DNA of 46,785 nt, taken from assembly GCA_029337695.3 (NCBI GenBank), contig GCA_029337695.3_4851.1; one strand, given 5' to 3'. The notes beneath the pieces were generated by a model. The model made no database searches, was not told the DNA's origin, and worked only from the letters and a program-made list of their open reading frames with translations. Position numbers and translations under genes: made by a program. Every line of letters starts with the position of its first letter. Position 1 is the first letter of the stretch. Shown in pieces: positions 3,536-46,785 of this stretch. Source of the stretch: a phage.

Positions 3536-3563
3536 AAAAGCCCCGAAAGGGGCTTTGTTTTAT
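3536..3563. terminator. bidirectional rho-independent terminator
   Basis: AGCCCC-gaaa-GGGGCT hairpin flanked by A-run and T-run, between convergent genes. Confidence 0.75.
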
Positions 3564-4091: not shown

Positions 4092-4149
4092 AATTCACCT
4101 CAGTCATATCTCGTTTAGATGACTTGAATCTACATCACCACCTCGCAGG

Positions 4150-20252: not shown

Positions 20253-20667
20253 ATTCCTTGAACTCTGGCGCTTCAGGCCAGAAGGCTATATTTCGCAGCG
20301 ACTTACCTGTGTGATTGCACCAGTATATTCCTGAGTCATCATACTTGGCAGTAACCTTGACGCGATCAGCATCAATAATAACAACCTCCTGTCCATCTTT
20401 AGGATCGAAAAGACGCGCATCTTTCCAGTTAGCAATCTCATTAAGGGAAAGAAGGACATAACCAGGAAGATAAGCGCCGACATCAGCGATGTGAACTATA
20501 GTTCTCTCTGTTCTCTCTCCTGTGTAGTCTCCATTCCACTCATAAAGAATGATCGCGTCTCCAATCTTAAAGTCACGGTCATTCTTTCTTAGTTCCGCCT
20601 TCTTGTGTCCGGTAACTACAGGCCAGAAGTGTTCAGGTAATATTTTAAGTTCGTGTGTTTTGCTCAT
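20251..20667 (-). CDS. DUF3850 (ASCH/PUA-like) domain protein
   Basis: N-terminus THELKILPEHFWPVVTGHKKAELRKNDRDFKIGD matches the DUF3850 signature; coupled to the upstream 530-aa gene. Confidence 0.6.
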   Translation of the reverse strand: MSKTHELKILPEHFWPVVTGHKKAELRKNDRDFKIGDAIILYEWNGDYTGERTERTIVHIADVGAYLPGYVLLSLNEIANWKDARLFDPKDGQEVVIIDADRVKVTAKYDDSGIYWCNHTGKSLRNIAFWPEAPEFKE

Positions 20668-22259
20668 TACAACCCCCTCATAAATCTCATGCGCTTAACG
20701 GCAGCGGAAAGATAATTTCTAACAGTTGAGTTCATCCGCAGACCATCCCATGAACCATCACTACACATCTTAATTGCTCTTGGATTATCCCTGTCCAGCA
20801 TTAGTGGTGAATGTTTGTTCTCCTCAATAGCAAGGAGAACTTCATAAACAAATTTATCCGGCGTTAATGTGATGTTGTTCGAGTCAGCAGAATTGATTAT
20901 CTTCTCAACTCTGTCACGGCACAGCTTGTTCTTTATAACAGACAAGTAAGGCGTTTTAATGAATGCCTGTGATTCACAAATTCGCTTTATTTTTTCAACA
21001 ATATTCGACCACTCAGTATTCTCAAGCCCATCAAATGCCTGTTCACCCTCAAGGAATCTTTTCAGCCCCGAGAGGTGTTCAAGAACAGTGAGATAACCCC
21101 ACTCGATATGCTCCGTCGTAACTGATGGTGTCATTCCCTGACGACTTGACAGATCGGTATACGCCGCCAGAGTTGCAAGATCGACAATCATTAGACCCAT
21201 GCGAGGGATAACATCACCAACAACACCATCGCAATCACCAAGCTCACTTTCCAGTTTCATGGACAGAGATCTGTGCAGTTTTTTCGCATTATCATCAGCC
21301 CATACAACGTTAGTTTTCGCGGTAAGAACCCTACCTTTCCACTCATTGATTATTTTTCTTGAAAGCGTACCACTCACTTCCACATCCTTCATCGCTGGCA
21401 TTTCCTCACCAGCAAGATGCCCAAGCTGGAACAGTACGCGCCCCATACCGCCATCTTTCTGCCATGAACGCGCAGCATCTATTCCCTGCTCTGGCGTGAC
21501 AGTAATCAGCGGAACAAATTTTGCGTTTTCAATTCCACCGTCTTTTGTTGCAATTTCGTACTCATTCATTGCCGACTTTAGCGCTCTCCCAACGCTGTGG
21601 TCCATCATCGCAAGGCGCTTATAATCTATGACTCCTTTCCCATCATCGCCACCAGTAAGTGGCACTATCCATCCCTCAGCACTTGCTGCAGCCATGATGC
21701 GTTTTGGGTTTTGTTCCCACGTAAGGTTTTCAAGCAACTCCTTGATTATTGGTCTGTTAGGAACCCACACGCCGCCATCAGTTAGGCCTCTATACCACGC
21801 CATAGTACCGCCAAGATATGCATTGCGCGGGTTGTTCCAGTCTTCAAGATGTTGCTTGTCATCGTTAACAACGTAGAGCAAAGACCCGCCTCCAGCAATC
21901 AGGTCCAACTGCATCTGTTTCGTCGAGGTTGATTTGGATGCGCAAACTCTGGACCCTATTCCCAGTGCATTGGCATATGCCCTGACGAAACTCACCGGGG
22001 CGCCCTTACCTGCACCAGAGCGAGCTACCAGAAATATGCCAGTATTGCAGATACTACCTGTTGGACCAATCAAGTATCGTCCAGCCATCGCCTGAGCAAG
22101 ACCCAAAGCGCCAGTTAAACGATATCTTCCCCCGCCCTCACGGCGCTCAAACCCCCTTGCGATCTCATCCATAAACTCACCAAGTGCACCGGGAGCCTCC
22201 CGCTTTATGCCCATAGCCAGAGACTCAAAATCAATTGAACTCATCAATACACCCTCCAT
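20667..22259 (-). CDS. large hypothetical protein with degenerate P-loop-like motif
   Basis: 530 aa; VARSGAGKGAP (Walker A-like but Gly at the S/T position) and LLYVVNDDKQ (Walker B-like); no family recognised. Confidence 0.5.
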   Translation of the reverse strand: MEGVLMSSIDFESLAMGIKREAPGALGEFMDEIARGFERREGGGRYRLTGALGLAQAMAGRYLIGPTGSICNTGIFLVARSGAGKGAPVSFVRAYANALGIGSRVCASKSTSTKQMQLDLIAGGGSLLYVVNDDKQHLEDWNNPRNAYLGGTMAWYRGLTDGGVWVPNRPIIKELLENLTWEQNPKRIMAAASAEGWIVPLTGGDDGKGVIDYKRLAMMDHSVGRALKSAMNEYEIATKDGGIENAKFVPLITVTPEQGIDAARSWQKDGGMGRVLFQLGHLAGEEMPAMKDVEVSGTLSRKIINEWKGRVLTAKTNVVWADDNAKKLHRSLSMKLESELGDCDGVVGDVIPRMGLMIVDLATLAAYTDLSSRQGMTPSVTTEHIEWGYLTVLEHLSGLKRFLEGEQAFDGLENTEWSNIVEKIKRICESQAFIKTPYLSVIKNKLCRDRVEKIINSADSNNITLTPDKFVYEVLLAIEENKHSPLMLDRDNPRAIKMCSDGSWDGLRMNSTVRNYLSAAVKRMRFMRGL

Positions 22260-25776: not shown

Positions 25777-27201
25777 ATGGCTCGTAAACGCCTCTCCGCA
25801 CTGGCAATCGAAAAACTGGAAGCGCAGATTGATGACGCGATGACTGATGTTGCAGAGTCCGCCATCTTCGGCATCTGCGACATGCAGAAGAACGTCATTA
25901 AGCGGTTAAGGATGACAGCTACTGGCGTTGATGATGTGACTAATGCAACCACTCATGCCGATCACCTGATTCCCGCAAAACTTGAACGCCTGCTTTATCC
26001 GAAGCGTTTTAAGTTTGTCTACGGTGGTCGCGGGTCAGGGAAAACGAGAACTATTATCACTATCCTTACTGAAAGGGCAAGATTTCGACCTGACCGCTTC
26101 GCCTGCTTTCGTGAGATTCAGCAATCCATTGAGGATTCAAGCTATCAGGAGCTGGTGGATGAGATAGCCCGCAAGGGAGAGTCGGCAGAGTTTCGCGTTG
26201 TCAACAACGAGATAACACACAAGAAGACCAAAGCGAAGTTTCGCTTCAAAGGGCTGTATCGCAATCAGACAACAGTTAAGGGTTTTGCTGGCATTACCGT
26301 CGGTTGGGTAGAGGAAGCAGAGAACGTCAGCCAGACAAGCTGGGATATTCTTGTACCTACCATCCGCGCCGCTAATTCCGAGCTGTGGTGCTCATTCAAC
26401 CCCAACAAGGAAACAGACCCGACATGGAAGAACTGGATTGCTCCATATCACTCACGGATGGTTGATGGCATATTCGAAAATGATGAAATTCTGATTATCG
26501 AATGTAACTATTCCGACAATCCGTGGTTCTGGGATACGCCGCTGCCATCAGCCATGGAGCAAATGAAGCGAACTGATTACGACCGTTATCGCTGGATTTG
26601 GATGGGAGCATTCAACAAGCGCAGCGACGAGCAGGTTTTTGGTGGCAAGTGGCGCATTGATAACTTCGAGGTCAAACCTGAATGGCACGGGCCATACTTC
26701 GGGATGGACTTCGGGTTTTCCACCGATCCTACCGCAATGGTTGAAGTGTACATCGAAGAGTTACCAGGTGGACGGCGTAACATTTATATTAATCGCGAGT
26801 ACGGCAAAGTTGGCCTTGAAATTACCGATACGCCAGCTGCGATGGAGCAATCATTTCCGATGGCTAAGCGCGCACGATGGTATGCCGACTGTGCGCGACC
26901 AGAAACCATCAGCCACATCAAGCGTTCTGGATTCGATATTCACCCGTGCACAAAATGGCCCGGGAGTGTTGATGATGGCGTAACGTGGCTGCGCGGTTGT
27001 GACAGCATCATCATTCACGAGAGATGCAAGGAAATGCAGAATGAGGCGGCGATGTACAGCTATAAGGTTGATAAGCTGACCGGGAATGTACTGACTGATA
27101 TTGTTGATGCATTTAACCACTTCTGGGATGCGGTTCGTTACGCCCTCAATGACCACATCGTTCAGCGCGGAAGCGGAATGCTAATCCGCCGCAGGCGATA
27201 A
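25777..27201 (+). CDS. terL: terminase large subunit
   Basis: Walker A YGGRGSGKTRT, Walker B-like VGWVEEAE, C-terminal nuclease-like region. Confidence 0.85.
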   Translation: MARKRLSALAIEKLEAQIDDAMTDVAESAIFGICDMQKNVIKRLRMTATGVDDVTNATTHADHLIPAKLERLLYPKRFKFVYGGRGSGKTRTIITILTERARFRPDRFACFREIQQSIEDSSYQELVDEIARKGESAEFRVVNNEITHKKTKAKFRFKGLYRNQTTVKGFAGITVGWVEEAENVSQTSWDILVPTIRAANSELWCSFNPNKETDPTWKNWIAPYHSRMVDGIFENDEILIIECNYSDNPWFWDTPLPSAMEQMKRTDYDRYRWIWMGAFNKRSDEQVFGGKWRIDNFEVKPEWHGPYFGMDFGFSTDPTAMVEVYIEELPGGRRNIYINREYGKVGLEITDTPAAMEQSFPMAKRARWYADCARPETISHIKRSGFDIHPCTKWPGSVDDGVTWLRGCDSIIIHERCKEMQNEAAMYSYKVDKLTGNVLTDIVDAFNHFWDAVRYALNDHIVQRGSGMLIRRRR

Positions 27202-33060: not shown

Positions 33061-33276
33061 TTAATAATTTGGCTTTACGTCCTTCATTGTTAGTGGCTTC
33101 CACCCACTTGCGATTGCAATATCAATACAATCCTCAAGCGTTTTAGCTTTTATTGGCTCACCAACTTCACTATCATCAAACATTCTCTGTATTTGATAGC
33201 CATCAACGACATAAAGGATTTCCACGGAGCCATGTAGCGTGTGCATAGACTCAAGCCATTGCAGGTGGTAGCTCAT
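33061..33276 (-). CDS. hypothetical protein
   Basis: 71-aa ORF coupled to the downstream gene. Confidence 0.4.
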   Translation of the reverse strand: MSYHLQWLESMHTLHGSVEILYVVDGYQIQRMFDDSEVGEPIKAKTLEDCIDIAIASGWKPLTMKDVKPNY

Positions 33277-33587
33277 TTTGCTTCTCCCAATGCCTTATTA
33301 ACCGCCGCACGCGCATTATCAAGAGCGCGACGCTTGCTTGATGTTGTCCAGACTTTTCCTGAGTGGTCGTCGTGGATTTCCAGTAGTTGCTGGAGTGCTG
33401 AGAGCAGTTCCGGTGATGCCGCGATTAATTTGGCGTTATGCCATTGCTCTGTTTTGTCGCCGTTATATGTTGGAGTGAACGCAATCTCAACTCCAGTATC
33501 CGAGATAACATCCGGGGCATTATCATCACCAATAACAACCTCCCATTTTCCTTGCGTGCCTTTGAACTCTTTCATCACCAGCCTCAC
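33273..33587 (-). CDS. conserved phage protein, paralog of 45453-45815
   Basis: Shares MKEFKGT.G.W ... AA(S/A)PELL.ALQ ... KALG blocks with the 120-aa protein at 45453-45815. Confidence 0.5.
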   Translation of the reverse strand: MRLVMKEFKGTQGKWEVVIGDDNAPDVISDTGVEIAFTPTYNGDKTEQWHNAKLIAASPELLSALQQLLEIHDDHSGKVWTTSSKRRALDNARAAVNKALGEAK

Positions 33588-33936: not shown

Positions 33937-33991
33937 TGATGTAGATACTATGCACCACCACTCAATCTACGTCAATACCTGTTGTGATAGA
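33937..33991 (+). promoter_or_regulatory. divergent promoter region with inverted AATCTAC motifs and extended -10 (TGTGATAGAAT)
   Basis: TGATGTAGATA (33937-33947) and AATCTACGTCAA (33963-33974), then TGTTGTGATAGAAT upstream of the endolysin. Confidence 0.5.
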
Positions 33992-42804: not shown

Positions 42805-42832
42805 CAAAACCCGCATCATGCGGGTTTTTTAT
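42805..42832 (+). terminator. rho-independent terminator
   Basis: AACCCGCAT-c-ATGCGGGTT followed by TTTTTAT. Confidence 0.8.
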
Positions 42833-42843
42833 TGGGGGTTTCT

Positions 42844-43692
42844 ATGGCTGTAAGATACGACATATTCACCACGCGGGATGACGGCGAGGTGACGCTTGAC
42901 GAGCTGATGTCCGCTGACTGGACTGCGCTACAGGTTAACGTGATGCCACTTGATTCATCTGGTGCATACACGCCACTGGTTAGCGGAACCGTGTCCGTGA
43001 AGGTGTCGCCATTTGAATATGGCAACTACTGGATTGACGTCAACAATAATAATTATTACGGCGTGGCATTGCGCCTGAAGATAATCAAAACTGAATTGCC
43101 AGCAGCAGTAAGCTCGCTGCGCGTTTCGGTCTGGCGAGCTGGTGTGTCTCCGCAATCGGTAGTAAACCTTCAGCCTGATGTGGCACTAAGCGACATCACC
43201 ACGCAATCATATATTGAGCGCGCTAACAAGCAAGGCAAGCTGTTCACTGCGTCGCGCAGAGTAACTGATGTCGCTGGCAGCTCAAGCCTTGACAGTATCT
43301 TTATCACCGGAACAAAGCAGGTGATATTCAATCAGCGCATTATTGGTTACACAGGGAAAGGTGTTGTTGCATCAATCTATCGCGGCGCAGTTGCCACTGG
43401 CGGCACTGCTGCGGAGATTAATAATCCCAACGACATAACGCCACAAGCAGCTACGGCGCAGTTAATCACTGGCGCTACCGTGACAAACGTCGGGCAGCTG
43501 ACGGTAGCAGCGACATATAGTGAGGGTAACGCATCGAATCAGGGACAGGGTAACTCTCAGGCTCGATTGGGTGAGCAAATTATCATGGCACCAAACACAA
43601 CGTATCTGCTCCGCATAACATCACTGGATACTGCGGTGCAGAATATCAATGCTTACGTTTCATGGTTTGAGGATGATACTTATCTGGCGTGA
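42844..43692 (+). CDS. putative virion structural protein
   Basis: About 283 aa from MAVRYD..., Ser/Thr/Gly/Val-rich beta-type composition, near the capsid genes. Confidence 0.4.
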   Translation: MAVRYDIFTTRDDGEVTLDELMSADWTALQVNVMPLDSSGAYTPLVSGTVSVKVSPFEYGNYWIDVNNNNYYGVALRLKIIKTELPAAVSSLRVSVWRAGVSPQSVVNLQPDVALSDITTQSYIERANKQGKLFTASRRVTDVAGSSSLDSIFITGTKQVIFNQRIIGYTGKGVVASIYRGAVATGGTAAEINNPNDITPQAATAQLITGATVTNVGQLTVAATYSEGNASNQGQGNSQARLGEQIIMAPNTTYLLRITSLDTAVQNINAYVSWFEDDTYLA

Positions 43693-43695
43693 TAA

Positions 43696-43722
43696 AATAA
43701 AAGCCCCTTCCGGGGCTTTTGA
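43696..43722. terminator. bidirectional rho-independent terminator
   Basis: AAGCCCC-ttcc-GGGGCTT flanked by A-run and T-run between convergent genes. Confidence 0.8.
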
Positions 43723-43725
43723 TTG

Positions 43726-44262
43726 CTACAGACGCATAGGCATAACAACAATCTTCGCAGTCTCGCCAGTTGGCGCACTAAGACAGCAAACTGCGGCATT
43801 TGTGTTTCCATTCAATTCAAACTTAACGACACAGAATTTAGGGTTAAACAGCTTGGCCACTTTCTCAACATCAACAAGATAGCCAGCATTGAAGCCGATT
43901 TCCTCTGTTGGCGAGGTCTGCTTCGGAATGATGCGGTCAATATCCGGGAATCGTCCGTCAATCTCTTCGCAGATACCAGTGCCAACCATCACGCCAGCTT
44001 CATCATGATACGTTGCAATTTTCGACTTTGTATCAATAATGGCGTAGTCATAGCGTTTTGTCGGAGACTTGCCAATCTTGATAATCACATTTTCTGTCAG
44101 CTTATTGTCATGACTGCCACCAATGAATGCGCGACGACCGTCAGTTGATGCAATACGACCATCAGGCATAAAGCAGATGCCGTTCAGGTAGTAACGCACA
44201 TCATTGCGCGCCTGAAATATTAATGCTGACTCAAGTAATAATTTGCTGATTTTTAGTTTCAT
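43726..44262 (-). CDS. truncated beta sliding clamp (DnaN) homolog: domain II plus C-terminal part of domain III
   Basis: 178 aa from the ATG. ARNDVRYYLNGICFM, ASTDGRRAF, IDGRFPDIDRIIPKQ, EIGFNAGYLVDV and C-terminal KIVVMPMRL parallel E. coli DnaN blocks QDVRYYLNGMLFE, ATDGHRLA, DGRFPDYRRVLPKN, EIGFNVSYVLDV and YVVMPMRL (from memory); no domain I. Confidence 0.7.
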   Translation of the reverse strand: MKLKISKLLLESALIFQARNDVRYYLNGICFMPDGRIASTDGRRAFIGGSHDNKLTENVIIKIGKSPTKRYDYAIIDTKSKIATYHDEAGVMVGTGICEEIDGRFPDIDRIIPKQTSPTEEIGFNAGYLVDVEKVAKLFNPKFCVVKFELNGNTNAAVCCLSAPTGETAKIVVMPMRL

Positions 44263-44434
44263 CACTTCACCTTAATCATGTGTTGTTTTGCAACCTTCAG
44301 GCATTCCTCAAAAATGCCTCCCTTCTTTGCGCTCTGATTGCGCTTGTAATACTGAATTGCCGCATCAATTGCCATCTGGTCGATATCTGGTAGCTTAGCG
44401 CGCAGTTGTTTTTCGATGAATTGTTCTGGTGTCA
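44262..44434 (-). CDS. small hypothetical protein (57 aa)
   Basis: MTPEQFIEKQLRAKLPDIDQ...; ATGA overlap with the clamp-like gene. Confidence 0.35.
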
Positions 44435-44650
44435 TTGAGTTATCCTTGTGTCTAATTGAGATTTGTAAAACAAATCAATACTTCCAAATGCTTTGTATTC
44501 AAATTTACCATTTTCGCGGCAAACCCGCTTTTCAAACCCATAATTGTCATTATTTGCCGTCCATGTTGTCACAGATAAGAAACCACTAGCCTGGACTATT
44601 GCGCCATTACCATCCCTGTCGCCGAACTTTATAATTTTGTAACGCATCAC
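44432..44650 (-). CDS. hypothetical protein
   Basis: 72-aa ORF coupled between the ParB-like and downstream genes. Confidence 0.4.
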   Translation of the reverse strand: MMRYKIIKFGDRDGNGAIVQASGFLSVTTWTANNDNYGFEKRVCRENGKFEYKAFGSIDLFYKSQLDTRITQ

Positions 44651-45456
44651 ATCTTCTCCAGAATTGCCATAACCTCGTGAATGTCAGCAACAGGAATCTG
44701 GATAAACTCCTCATCCTCAGCCACCACATGACCAGCAGGAAGAATCACGTGATCTGCTTGCTTCAACAGCTCAATCAGGCGGTCTACTGGCTTAATCTTT
44801 TTGGACTTCAGCACTTTGGCTGTGACCTTATCCTTGCCTTGCGCCTTCGCTTCCTCGACTGCCTCGTCGATAACTTTAACCGCATCATCGCCATGTTCGC
44901 GCGTTACCGCTACGGCGTTTGCATAGCTGATTTGCCCTGCACTGATTCGTGCCTTCACTTCCGCTGGCAAATCACCCAATGACAGGTGCATTTGCACGTC
45001 AGATACTGAGCGACCTACCTTCTTAGCGATTTCCTCATTAGTCCAGCCAAAGCCTTTCAGTCGCGTGTAAGCCTTTGCACGTTCAAACGGGTCGAGCTGC
45101 TTGCCCTGGCTGGATGACACCATGAAGGCAATTTTATCCGCCTCATCGCCAGTGAAATCTTTGCACTCAATGCGAACGATTGGTGCGCCACGCTCAATGG
45201 CACGCAATGCGCCGAGATAGCGGTGCTGACCATCAAGAATGCGAATTCCCTTCTCGTCTGGAATAACTGTTAATGCTGGTAGTGGCTGGCCTGATTCCCA
45301 GCACTGCGCAAAATATTCAACGTGTTGCTCATCTGCTTCACGGATGTTGTATCCCGGCTCCAGATAAATTTGCTCCACTGGTACGAGATAGGTTTTGTTT
45401 ACCGCAATGCCGTTGCGCGTCTCTTTGTCTGAATAGATTTTGCTGAGTGTTTTCAT
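44647..45456 (-). CDS. ParB-like N-terminal domain protein with HTH
   Basis: ParB-box-like IRILDGQHRY and HTH segment WTNEEIAKKVGRSVSDVQMHLSL. Confidence 0.7.
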   Translation of the reverse strand: MKTLSKIYSDKETRNGIAVNKTYLVPVEQIYLEPGYNIREADEQHVEYFAQCWESGQPLPALTVIPDEKGIRILDGQHRYLGALRAIERGAPIVRIECKDFTGDEADKIAFMVSSSQGKQLDPFERAKAYTRLKGFGWTNEEIAKKVGRSVSDVQMHLSLGDLPAEVKARISAGQISYANAVAVTREHGDDAVKVIDEAVEEAKAQGKDKVTAKVLKSKKIKPVDRLIELLKQADHVILPAGHVVAEDEEFIQIPVADIHEVMAILEKM

Positions 45457-45815
45457 TGTTTCTTTCCTAATGCTTTATTGATAGATTCTTCAGCTAACAG
45501 CAATTCTTCTGGGTATTGTTCATTCCAGTTTTGTTTGTATGCTTTGTTAAGCATTTTTTGCAGAGCTTCAAGCAACTCAGGTGCCGCCGCCATTAAATTA
45601 AAATCATGCTCAACACTGCCATCAATCTCCCAATGCATCCCGTTGTATTTGGCACCCTTACTAGAGAAGGCGATGTTTCTGTCATCGTCATAGTGACAAC
45701 CAGGCGTGTCATCAGCTCTACAAGACGGGTAAACCGCTGCGCAACCACCGCGAATATCTGCAACCCACGGACCGGGCGTGCCTTTAAATTCTTTCATCTC
45801 CATCACCTCTAACAT
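45453..45815 (-). CDS. conserved phage protein, paralog of 33273-33587
   Basis: Shares MKEFKGTPGPW ... AAAPELLEALQ ... KALG blocks with the 104-aa protein at 33273-33587. Confidence 0.5.
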   Translation of the reverse strand: MLEVMEMKEFKGTPGPWVADIRGGCAAVYPSCRADDTPGCHYDDDRNIAFSSKGAKYNGMHWEIDGSVEHDFNLMAAAPELLEALQKMLNKAYKQNWNEQYPEELLLAEESINKALGKKQ

Positions 45816-45821
45816 TTATTG

Positions 45822-45867
45822 TTGCTTCTACGTCACTAACTATAAACGCCACATCAATCTACGTCAA
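45822..45867 (+). promoter_or_regulatory. divergent promoter region with two AATCTACGTCA motif copies
   Basis: TTCTACGTCAC (45822-45836) and CAATCTACGTCAA (45855-45867) between divergent operons. Confidence 0.45.
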
Positions 45868-45915
45868 CAGGAATATGCTAAAATCATGCTAATCAAACAA
45901 CAGGAGATTTAAGCA

Positions 45916-46056
45916 TGGTTAAGTGCATCAAGAAAAATGGGTCGACGAATGGCCCTTCTCGTTCTCGCGCTACTGGCAATACCAAAACTGGCGGCAAAAC
46001 TGGCGCAGTGAAGCCAAACGGCTCCACCCGCTCACCATCGCGCGGTAAGAAATAAT
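45916..46056 (+). CDS. small basic low-complexity protein (46 aa)
   Basis: MVKCIKKNGSTNGPSRSRATGNTKTGGKTGAVKPNGSTRSPSRGKK, with a GGAG RBS. Confidence 0.35.
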
Positions 46057-46495
46057 GTTCGGCGCAGACGTTGCCATCATGATCATGTATGCGCTTGGTT
46101 TTGCCTGCACGGGCATGGTCGCGTTTCTGGTGTTCATTCCGGCAATGGTGATGTCTGTGTATCTTGGATGGGTGCTTGTTGATTCATTTCCCGCCGAATA
46201 TCTGTATTACCTTGCGCAGTCTATGGTCTGGTTGTTCCCGGCTATCGCACTGCGCAAAAGTACAAAGATGGCGCTCTGCGCGCTGACGATGAGCCTTTAC
46301 GAATGGCTGGTAGCGATAGAGTCATTCGTATGGGAATTTATCACGCCTGTAGAAACGCCGCTTCATGCGCAGTACGCATTTATTATTATCGGCATCCATC
46401 TGTTCATCCTTTCCATCACTTTTAAATGGGGCGGCGAAATTGGACATTATTCTTGGCGTGGTCGCCATTGTTTTTTCGCTGATTCAAATCTATAA
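46055..46495 (+). CDS. polytopic membrane protein
   Basis: 146 aa with about four hydrophobic helices; ATGA overlap with the previous ORF. Confidence 0.45.
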   Translation: MFGADVAIMIMYALGFACTGMVAFLVFIPAMVMSVYLGWVLVDSFPAEYLYYLAQSMVWLFPAIALRKSTKMALCALTMSLYEWLVAIESFVWEFITPVETPLHAQYAFIIIGIHLFILSITFKWGGEIGHYSWRGRHCFFADSNL

Positions 46496-46527
46496 GTGCT
46501 GGAAACATATCATCAGCGAGACACGCA

Positions 46528-46785
46528 ATGAACGGGACACTAAGGCAAGTCGCAGAGCAGATTATAAGCGGAACGACAGGACAGGTGATTGATAAAGCTG
46601 GGTATGCTTCTATTGGAACCGGCATCGGCATGAAAGTTGCAGAGCAAACACCTGTCACGCAATCTTATTTTGAGACTATGATTCCACACTCATTAACAGA
46701 GTGGGCGGCGGTTGCATCAATACTTGGTGCGCTATCTCTGGTAATAAAAAACCTCTTTGAAATGTGGTGGAAGGTACGGGAGTCG
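46528..46785 (+). CDS. holin-like small membrane protein, 3'-partial at window edge
   Basis: ATG at 46528; Gly-rich segment GYASIGTGIG then TM-like EWAAVASILGALSLVI and basic WWKVRES; the second segment loosely resembles S21-type pinholins. Runs off the window. Confidence 0.3.
   Translation, partial: MNGTLRQVAEQIISGTTGQVIDKAGYASIGTGIGMKVAEQTPVTQSYFETMIPHSLTEWAAVASILGALSLVIKNLFEMWWKVRES

Follow-up and report, generated by a model that had tools for sequence, protein, structure and literature searches.

A ParB-like protein and a cut-down sliding clamp in a minus-strand operon of a Skatevirus-like phage

The peptide-binding cleft of the bacterial sliding clamp, the beta subunit DnaN, is the hub that coordinates DNA polymerases, the clamp loader, Hda and mismatch repair, and it is also an antibiotic target. 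Several phage systems exploit this interaction hub during infection, including Gp168 of Twort, MuC of Mu and the gp45-dependent late transcription of T4, and in each of these the phage protein either binds the host clamp or is itself a complete clamp. Here we describe a different arrangement, found in a 46,785-nucleotide stretch of phage DNA (contig GCA_029337695.3_4851.1 of assembly GCA_029337695.3; this whole stretch is referred to as the window). At 43726-44265 on its minus strand lies a gene for a 179-residue protein, herein called the mini-clamp, which is a clamp in reduced form, and which would itself capture the clients of the host clamp or compete for them. It is the last gene of a five-gene operon (43726-45815), the second gene of which encodes a 269-residue ParB-like protein.

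Orphan ParB proteins of phages are themselves a known and growing class, to which the window adds one well-constrained example. The group described as divergent orphan ParBs on mobile elements, which the window protein resembles, contains folds that may bind CTP, ATP or GTP (bioRxiv 10.1101/2025.10.10.680097). ParB-like accessory proteins of phages are also known to activate DNA-modifying enzymes (PMC13229309). A sequence-only reading of the operon had proposed that its combination of genes matches no known system; the operon turns out to be a variation on known kinds, in which the pairing of ParB with the mini-clamp is a lineage-specific synteny. Of the two subjects, the mini-clamp family is the more interesting object than the operon pairing.

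The window represents essentially the whole genome, of around 46.8 kb, of a Skatevirus-like virulent siphophage, since the best DNA matches of the region 43500-46100 are siphophages of the Skatevirus/Shuimuvirus group that infect Salmonella, Escherichia, Shigella and Klebsiella (megablast; 178 phage records). The closest named relatives are IME207, Bas78 and Bas80 of the BASEL collection, Sf11, swi2 and Skate. In both Skate and IME207 the same minus-strand block is found between the major-capsid genes and the head-tail and tail genes. The gene content of IME207 includes a single-stranded DNA-binding protein, Erf, exonuclease VIII, helicases and a primase, with no DNA polymerase.

The mini-clamp family

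The relationship of the mini-clamp to DnaN is evident at the levels of both sequence and modeled structure. When compared with PDB sequences using phmmer, residues 8-117 align to residues 136-252 of Escherichia coli beta, which form domain II, and residues 119-179 align to beta 312-366, the second half of domain III, with the C-terminal VVMPMRL being identical in the two proteins. The AlphaFold2 (AF2) model, generated from a 99-sequence alignment, has a predicted local distance difference test score (pLDDT) of 96.3 and a predicted template modeling score (pTM) of 0.91. Its top 50 Foldseek matches in the PDB are all beta clamps, many of them in complex with peptides or inhibitors (probability 1.0, TMq 0.63-0.69), and the fold is thus that of the DNA clamps and processivity factors. 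The curated DnaN models score below their thresholds, with a partial match to PF02768 (17 versus 27 bits) and a TIGR00663 score of 30.2 versus 137.65 bits. A mini-clamp from a Burkholderia phage, compared with the PDB as a test of host matching, again has E. coli beta as its best match, an outcome that is uninformative as to the host.

In comparison to DnaN, which is about 366 residues in length, the mini-clamp has no counterpart of domain I, of the second helix of domain II, or of beta residues ~253-311, a segment that includes Phe278 (phmmer alignment and AF2 model). The head-to-tail dimer interface is likewise absent, and because this interface is built from domain I and the N-terminal half of domain III, the protein is presumably unable to form a ring. 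The gene had earlier been taken for a DnaN fragment: the kinship is borne out, although the protein is a complete member of a family whose proteins are 170-210 residues long, rather than a fragment. An exhaustive HMMER search recovered 1402 representative clusters, defined at 50% identity, with E<1e-3, and 149 with E<1e-10; the family therefore numbers at least 1400 such clusters, and nearly all of the 150 best listed fall within 170-210 residues.

The window protein is a clear, full-length member of PHROG 3007 that shows no structural difference from it, and is set apart by an arginine at a near-invariant histidine position. Its relatives in PHROG 3007 come from Skatevirus, Klebsiella siphophages, Eta, lambdoid prophages, Dhillonvirus, Kagunavirus, Naesvirus and Obolenskvirus, and also from Vibrio, Shewanella and Pseudomonas phages. 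This large family has dropped the ring and kept the cleft, and it spans lambdoid prophages as well as virulent sipho- and myophages. Comparison with four relatives gives a ratio of nonsynonymous to synonymous substitution rates (dN/dS) of about 0.09-0.11, indicative of purifying selection.

Existing names for the family are varied. PHROG 3007 bears the label RusA-like Holliday junction resolvase, which can be rejected, as neither Pfam nor NCBIfam returns RusA for the protein and all sequence and structure matches are to sliding clamps. The label has been propagated from PHROG 3007 into RefSeq (NC_031924, NC_054639 and others), and the family has been hidden as a result. Other records are annotated as DNA polymerase III beta subunit or beta clamp domain protein, while genome papers have used DNA Pol III b subunit fragment (Bcep43) and putative beta-clamp protein (Eta). 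Our literature search for functional studies of short DnaN-like phage proteins found none, the genome papers only annotating them; of the two genes considered here, the Eta genome paper discusses only ParB.

A pointer to function comes from the distribution of conserved residues. In the 99-sequence alignment the invariant or near-invariant columns are D22, R24, Y26, G43, H44, P107, Y129, M175 and P176, which correspond to beta D150, R152, Y154, G174, H175, P242, Y323, M362 and P363. Of the 25 columns with the highest conservation, 12 coincide with one of the 21 positions of the cleft (p = 5e-7). Apart from those of subsite 2, these positions are ones that we take, from published clamp-peptide structures, to line the cleft. 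Subsite 2 of the clamp includes His175, Asn320, Met362, Pro363, Met364 and Arg365 (PMC6511837). The equivalents of R152, Y154, L155, T172, G174, H175, P242, N320, Y323, M362, P363 and R365 are 81-100% conserved in the family. The earlier suggestion that the gene encodes a clamp pocket is therefore well supported, at the level of sequence and model, by cleft conservation, phmmer, AF2 and Foldseek alike.

If the family does bind clamp-binding motifs (CBMs), then it would constitute a natural free-standing cleft domain, and could be used as a probe for the clients that phages need or fear. It might also represent a new mode of replisome hijack or host shut-off, as well as a scaffold for inhibitor screening.

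The ParB-like protein and its association with the mini-clamp

The operon that houses both genes is arranged as follows, in the direction of transcription.

45839..45867, minus strand: sigma-70-like operon promoter (TTGACG, 17 nt, TATAGT), its -35 embedded in the phage-wide motif TTGACGTAGATTG
45827..45835, minus strand: second motif copy, TGACGTAGA, just 3' of the -10, at or near the transcript start
45453..45815, minus strand: first gene, PHROG 1273; homologs carry a precomputed Pfam annotation, PF27050
44647..45456, minus strand: gene for the 269-residue ParB/KorB/Noc-type protein, with HTH_ParB, KorB and Spo0J matches
44432..44650, minus strand: 72-residue accessory open reading frame (ORF) with only a weak match, to PHROG 20151
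44262..44435, minus strand: gene for a conserved small protein of 57 residues, PHROG 4439
43726..44265, minus strand: gene for the 179-residue mini-clamp, PHROG 3007, E 6.5e-63, full length
43699..43720, both strands: GC-rich hairpin terminator common to the converging plus-strand head genes and the minus-strand operon

All five ORFs were found where the sequence-only reading had placed them (45453-45815, 44647-45456, 44432-44650, 44262-44435 and 43726-44265), and the tight coupling that it described can be read directly from the sequence, the four junctions being, in order, overlaps of ATGA, GTGA/TGATG, ATGA and GTGA/TGATG. A consensus scan returned one good minus-strand promoter, TTGACG-17-TATAGT at 45867-45839, in agreement with that reading, and this promoter is conserved in IME207, seszw, Skate and SB28. 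The proposed bidirectional terminator was recovered by scanning as a GC-rich hairpin with a 9-bp stem and a T-run (43720-43699), and the annotation of Skate likewise has a terminator on each strand at this place; the hairpin starts 5 nt past the stop codon of the last gene. The five genes thus form one tightly coupled, co-transcribed early unit.

The ParB-like call for the second gene is upheld by Pfam, in which the protein matches PF17762 HTH_ParB at 46.3 bits (cut-off 22.6) and PF08535 KorB at 27.3 bits (cut-off 22.3), and it belongs to PHROG 1033 with an E of 3e-91. Its PDB homologs are Spo0J (E 2.5e-13), Myxococcus ParB-family proteins, Noc and KorB, and the alignments cover the N-terminal domain and the helix-turn-helix (HTH) region. 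The domain order, a ParB-like N-terminal domain followed by HTH_ParB and a C-terminal domain, is the same as that of ParB-Spo0J, Noc and KorB, with homology extending from the N-terminal domain through the HTH. The protein diverges from these relatives in having no ParA, no parS-like palindrome and altered boxes II and III. The canonical CTPase motifs are replaced, with DGQHR (within GQHRYLGA) in the place of the box II GERRxRA and SSSQG in the place of the box III ENLQR, and the forms common to five diverse orthologs are DG(H/Q)(H/R)R and (T/S)S(S/Q)(Q/E)G. The Pfam scan did not detect PF02195, and the TIGR00180 score of 40.6 is below the cut-off of 58.45.

With regard to a partner ATPase, the only Walker-A motif in the window belongs to the terminase at 26023, no ParA is annotated in IME207 or SB28, and the 269-residue protein contains neither a ParA-interaction motif of the form [LIF]G[KR]G[LIF] nor an LG[KR]GL. 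In a search for parS neither palindromes nor 12-mers recurred, the promoter motif described below aside, and a single 7+3+7 palindrome at 44460-44476 is at chance level. The protein is thus a divergent orphan DNA-binding protein of the ParB/KorB HTH type. It can be compared with the phage ParB that is associated with a 5mYOX/T dioxygenase (PMC13229309), which is likewise an orphan phage ParB homolog outside of partitioning. However, the dioxygenase-associated ParBs have no obvious DNA-binding domain and are paired with a dioxygenase, whereas the window protein has an HTH and no dioxygenase. Relatives of the operon often carry DNA methyltransferases between or beside ParB and the mini-clamp, although the operon in the window has no methylase.

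The ParB gene is under very strong purifying selection, with a dN/dS of 0.013-0.017 and 98-99% amino-acid identity across Skatevirus phages whose DNA is ~90% identical. Within the operon it stands out as strongly constrained and hard to delete, and it would be expected to have a regulatory or DNA-organizing role.

The association of the two genes can be followed through two sets of IMG/VR loci, one of 80 loci centered on the mini-clamp and another of 79 centered on ParB. Mini-clamp loci of at least 65% identity with enough upstream DNA all have a same-strand ParB gene upstream, and the gap between the two genes ranges from 128 to 1579 bp and is filled with variable cargo, including methyltransferases, EaC, anti-restriction genes and HNH. 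In loci resembling that of Serratia phage Eta, ParB and the mini-clamp directly adjoin and are followed by a helicase gene, and in Pseudomonas phage D14E the mini-clamp is again found within a ParB-containing operon. Loci of 45-58% identity belong to lambdoid temperate phages without ParB, in the order cI(S24)-cro-cII-miniclamp-O(Phage_rep_O)-P(lambda_P) or DnaB, and none of those at 29-37% identity has ParB. Mini-clamps of 58% identity or less are almost never near ParB, being positioned between cII and O/P or alone in structural clusters. In Nafs113 (helicase-nuclease-miniclamp) and Vibrio R20L the gene lies in replication/recombination modules.

From the ParB side, 56 of the 79 loci have a mini-clamp downstream, and among the 76 with at least 3.3 kb of downstream DNA there are 20 that lack it. 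These include one locus with a 99%-identical ParB (arranged ParB-p57-86 aa-MCP), around 14 of Klebsiella type, and Jilinvirus-like orthologs; the closest ParB orthologs outside the clade, in Jilinvirus ECO1230-10, Bas97 and Shewanella 1/44, are without a mini-clamp. Hence the genes occur together in one clade but not wherever either is found, since about a quarter of the ParB loci above are clamp-less and most clamp lineages are ParB-less. The idea of a dedicated ParB-clamp module consequently holds as far as synteny within that clade is concerned, and is not supported with respect to interdependence, given the ParB-only loci, the clamp-only loci and the seszw mutants described below. ParB and the mini-clamp represent a lineage-specific synteny rather than an obligatory two-part system, and any functional meaning of the pairing is putative.

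Deletions made in the laboratory provide further insight. In the CiPGr study, genes of the Skatevirus seszw were serially deleted and the mutant genomes were placed in GenBank (PMC9825161), and it is from these deposited genomes that the deletions were read. The 57-residue gene is lost early in this reduction series, with many mutants missing that gene only, and at least seven late mutants have lost both the mini-clamp and the 57-residue gene while keeping ParB and the gene upstream of it, as in seszw_290S (35,993 bp). ParB is retained in every mutant examined. In seszw_200L (MZ375333; locus L105, 1201-1965), ParB has an in-frame deletion of 15 residues, LGDVPAEVKARISAG, just after the HTH region. 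An in-frame CRISPR-escape deletion, as opposed to loss of the gene, is typical of escape in a gene that matters, and it points to a loop that ParB can spare and to selection on the remainder of the protein.

Nature has also performed a deletion. The syntenic Macdonaldcampvirus SB28 retains the promoter, a homolog of the 57-residue protein and a 40-residue remnant of the ParB C-terminus, and has neither ParB nor the mini-clamp. Both proteins are therefore ultimately dispensable. Their joint loss is the one observation that favors a functional link, albeit as a single case.

The promoter motif noted in the sequence-only reading is real. TGAYGTAGA is present in 12 copies in the window, where 0.62 would be expected, starting at positions 4129, 16839, 19218, 23372, 23389, 27249, 33937, 33966, 37005, 37030, 45827 and 45858, and the last two copies (45827-45835 and 45858-45866) flank the -10 of the operon promoter. 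The copies, often in the form TTGACGTAGATTG, lie without exception in intergenic DNA, where they form a -35-like element or stand 30-45 nt 5' of start codons, and are often paired at divergent promoters. The motif is conserved, with 12 copies in IME207 and 14 in SB28. We considered whether TGAYGTAGA could be the ParB operator, and rejected this, because SB28 maintains its copies, including that at the operon promoter, in a genome that has no ParB; the motif is therefore not a ParB-dependent site.

Possible roles of the operon

The reading that we favor, and that we would give about an even chance of being right, is of an early accessory operon in which the mini-clamp binds CBM-containing proteins and tunes replication independently of ParB. 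The operon would be driven by a sigma-70-type promoter early in infection, as an opposite-strand insertion that separates the head genes from the tail genes, and its ParB and mini-clamp would both act on DNA metabolism without being obligate partners. The mini-clamp would function as a soluble, non-ring cleft module that docks CBMs of the QL[SD]LF type, and this role is the most likely one because domain I and the ring interface have been shed and the hydrophobic cleft has been kept. We infer that its clients could be the alpha, epsilon or delta subunits of host Pol III, Hda, Pol II, IV or V, MutS/L, or CBM proteins of the phage itself. Binding of a client would tune DNA replication in favor of the phage, either by recruitment or by selective sequestration, and in a more speculative variant the sequestration of Hda would raise DnaA-ATP.

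A number of observations count against this reading. The window copy has an arginine at the equivalent of His175, a position that is histidine in 66 of 70 close relatives and in 94% of the family, and part of beta subsite 2 (Phe278, within the 253-311 segment) is missing in the mini-clamp. Some of the cleft conservation could be structural, because the cleft residues are also the most conserved of clamps in general. A consensus CBM peptide (GSMTGQLDLF) tethered through a 31-residue Gly linker reached a pLDDT of only 55, compared with 43-50 for the linker, in AF2 modeling without a scrambled control. A search for CBMs among the proteins of the phage itself gave no conserved motif and only weak regex hits, the best being QMQLDLI in a Ser/Thr/Gly-rich stretch of a 530-residue protein (20667-22259, minus strand). 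Mutants of seszw form plaques without the mini-clamp, and many natural relatives do not have it, and therefore any role that it has must be an accessory one. Kagunavirus fFiEco03 has a member of the family and also its own PolA, and a single story of recruiting host Pol III therefore fails for some hosts of the family. With respect to a ParB target, no palindrome was found to recur, and the promoter motif has outlasted the loss of ParB in SB28. The related proposal that the mini-clamp compensates for a missing phage polymerase was also considered; it is true for Skatevirus and the lambdoid phages, and it is rejected on account of the PolA of fFiEco03.

A possible, though rather unlikely, alternative is that the mini-clamp is a decoy or inhibitor, its monomeric cleft soaking up clamp clients such as delta, Pol III, Hda or MutS/L, with the effect of switching off or deregulating replication and repair in the host. 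It would then be a means of take-over or a weapon against the host, with a purpose like that of the Staphylococcus phage proteins directed at DnaN. The conservation of the cleft in a protein without the DNA-encircling parts is consistent with such an activity, as are early expression from a sigma-70 promoter, a presence in a phage with its own PolA, and an accessory, laboratory-dispensable nature that is to be expected of a take-over gene. Nevertheless, IME207 has no DNA polymerase and lambda-type O/P replication relies on that of the host, and as a consequence a blanket sequestration of Pol III or delta would hurt the phage itself; the position of the gene at the head of replication modules, beside O/P or helicases, also fits better with a positive role. 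Replication-module contexts, together with the clamp fold, the high model confidence and the name DNA polymerase III beta subunit that many phage records carry, could be thought to indicate a genuine if unusual sliding clamp, forming either a homo-oligomeric ring or a hetero-ring with host beta and acting as a processivity factor. We regard this as extremely improbable. Only about 1.5 domains are present, with one channel-lining helix of domain II missing along with the N-terminal half of domain III, nothing corresponds to domain I or to the I272/L273-type dimer interface region, the a-b-b repeat would not be able to tile a regular pseudo-12-fold ring, and AF2 returns a compact monomer (pTM 0.91).

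The two remaining possibilities give the leading part to ParB. In one, ParB and the mini-clamp form a single machine, in which ParB loads at specific sites on phage or host DNA and tethers the mini-clamp as a loader-independent docking platform for CBM-bearing polymerases or repair factors. Co-transcription and translational coupling are in keeping with this idea, as are the invariable upstream position of ParB in the clade of at least 65% identity, the recurrence of adjacency or a shared operon in Eta, L069 and the unrelated Pseudomonas phage D14E, and the loss of both genes from SB28 with retention of the 57-residue gene lying between them. We consider it improbable, since 20 of the 76 informative ParB loci and the nearest ParB orthologs outside the clade are without a mini-clamp, most mini-clamp lineages are without ParB, the seszw mutants drop the mini-clamp and keep ParB under selection, variable cargo occupies gaps of 128-1579 bp between the genes, and the CTP-clamp motifs are not conserved in a ParB that has no parS-like site. 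A narrower form, confined to Skatevirus, Eta and D14E, would have a ParB dimer clamp or spread on phage DNA and present the cleft as a loader-independent landing pad for host Pol III or other CBM enzymes; it is, to our minds, decidedly doubtful. If it were true, the ParB carrier and mini-clamp would make up a composite surrogate sliding clamp, assembled from two unrelated clamp lineages. In the other possibility, ParB is a global KorB-like transcription regulator acting through TGAYGTAGA and the mini-clamp is unrelated cargo. The KorB and HTH_ParB domain matches would suit a regulator, and so would the motif count of 12 versus an expected 0.62, with every copy at a promoter or leader and two of them around the -10 of the operon, the two copies flanking the ParB segment in Jilinvirus, and the very strong constraint on a ParB that is never deleted in the seszw series. 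This reading is nonetheless very improbable, as the ParB-less SB28 has 14 motif copies at the same places, including the operon promoter, the motif is not palindromic, and Eta and D14E, with their related ParBs, are without it.

Small operon genes and neighboring features

The first gene of the operon probably starts at the ATG at 45797, to give a protein of 114 residues (MKEFK...), because the ribosome-binding site GAGGTGATGGAG fits this start and because a paralog starts alike. It had been described as an Ead-like paralog, of which the paralogy is confirmed (34% identity, E 8e-8) and the Ead label is not, as no Ead_Ea22 match is found in Pfam or NCBIfam at E<=1. The PF27050 model is outside the Pfam copy that was searched, and the assignment is known from the precomputed annotation of homologs. 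The paralog is located as follows.

33273..33587, minus strand: paralog of the first operon gene, outside the operon and behind a second promoter/motif copy at 33947-33975

The first-gene slot is variable, with 35% identity to Skate gp44 and an unrelated DUF551 gene at that place in IME207. The 72-residue ORF is variable too, being present in IME207 and missing from Skate and seszw. The 57-residue gene is usually found directly upstream of the mini-clamp and persists where the mini-clamp and/or ParB have been lost, as in SB28 and in loci L123, L139 and L166; its dN/dS is 0.06-0.17.

Outside the ParB-containing clade, a lone mini-clamp gene on the opposite strand is found inside the head/tail clusters of Kagunavirus, Guernseyvirinae SE1, Naesvirus Bcep43 and Shewanella 1/41. 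In Dhillonvirus EP23 an opposite-strand mini-clamp in the head/tail cluster is followed by an Nmad5 gene, and in Obolenskvirus Cato the gene lies on the same strand, between the tail and baseplate genes. The mini-clamps in structural clusters, an odd location that keeps recurring, are found at the following positions.

L007, 5007-5519: mini-clamp in structural cluster
L008, 4962-5483: mini-clamp in structural cluster
L009, 4998-5579: mini-clamp in structural cluster
L019, 3468-3983: mini-clamp in structural cluster
L020, 3504-4052: mini-clamp in structural cluster
L016, 3962-4519: mini-clamp in structural cluster

DNA-modification genes are often encountered near the mini-clamp, and include Nmad5 (EP23), C5-methyltransferases (D14E and several Skatevirus relatives) and Dam (R20L and Nafs113). 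In a study of Dhillonvirus, a point mutation in Nmad5 let phages escape Tmn immunity (PMC11846954). Such genes are also present in Bas78-80 and HC6, and have been located at the positions below.

L007, 5601-6365: DNA-modification gene near mini-clamp
L017, 5008-6447: DNA-modification gene near mini-clamp
L010, 6335-7000: DNA-modification gene near mini-clamp
L021, 6525-7100: DNA-modification gene near mini-clamp

The Jilinvirus phages are unrelated temperate myophages, with ParBs that are 43-49% identical to that of the window. In ECO1230-10 and Bas97 two inverted copies of an extended form of the promoter motif, GCG.TGATGTAGAGT.ATT, flank orf6-ParB-orf4-orf3, at 2641 and 5107 in locus L013 and at 2647 and 6541 in locus L015.

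Elsewhere in the window, the 530-residue protein encoded at 20667-22259 is only 19% identical to the protein annotated as a DNA helicase at the equivalent place in IME207 and SB28; the gene is thus not orthologous and has been replaced. Near-identical GC-rich terminator hairpins, AAAAGCCCCGAAAGGGGCTTT, are present at 3536-3561 and 43695-43720, in opposite orientation and 40 kb apart. An Rfam search of 43000-46785 gave no match. Divergent from the operon promoter region, an ORF at 45915-46055 on the plus strand encodes an extremely basic protein of 46 residues, rich in Lys, Arg, Gly, Ser and Thr, and stands immediately before the gene for a 146-residue membrane protein (46055-46495); the small ORF is an annotated gene in both Skate and IME207, and SB28 has it conserved as well. 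Finally, between the capsid-region genes and the terminator, an ORF at 42832-43692 on the plus strand encodes a protein of 286 residues with no Pfam match, which is found in IME207 and in Klebsiella-type relatives (76-77% identical), is missing in Skate and seszw, and may be a head-associated accessory protein.

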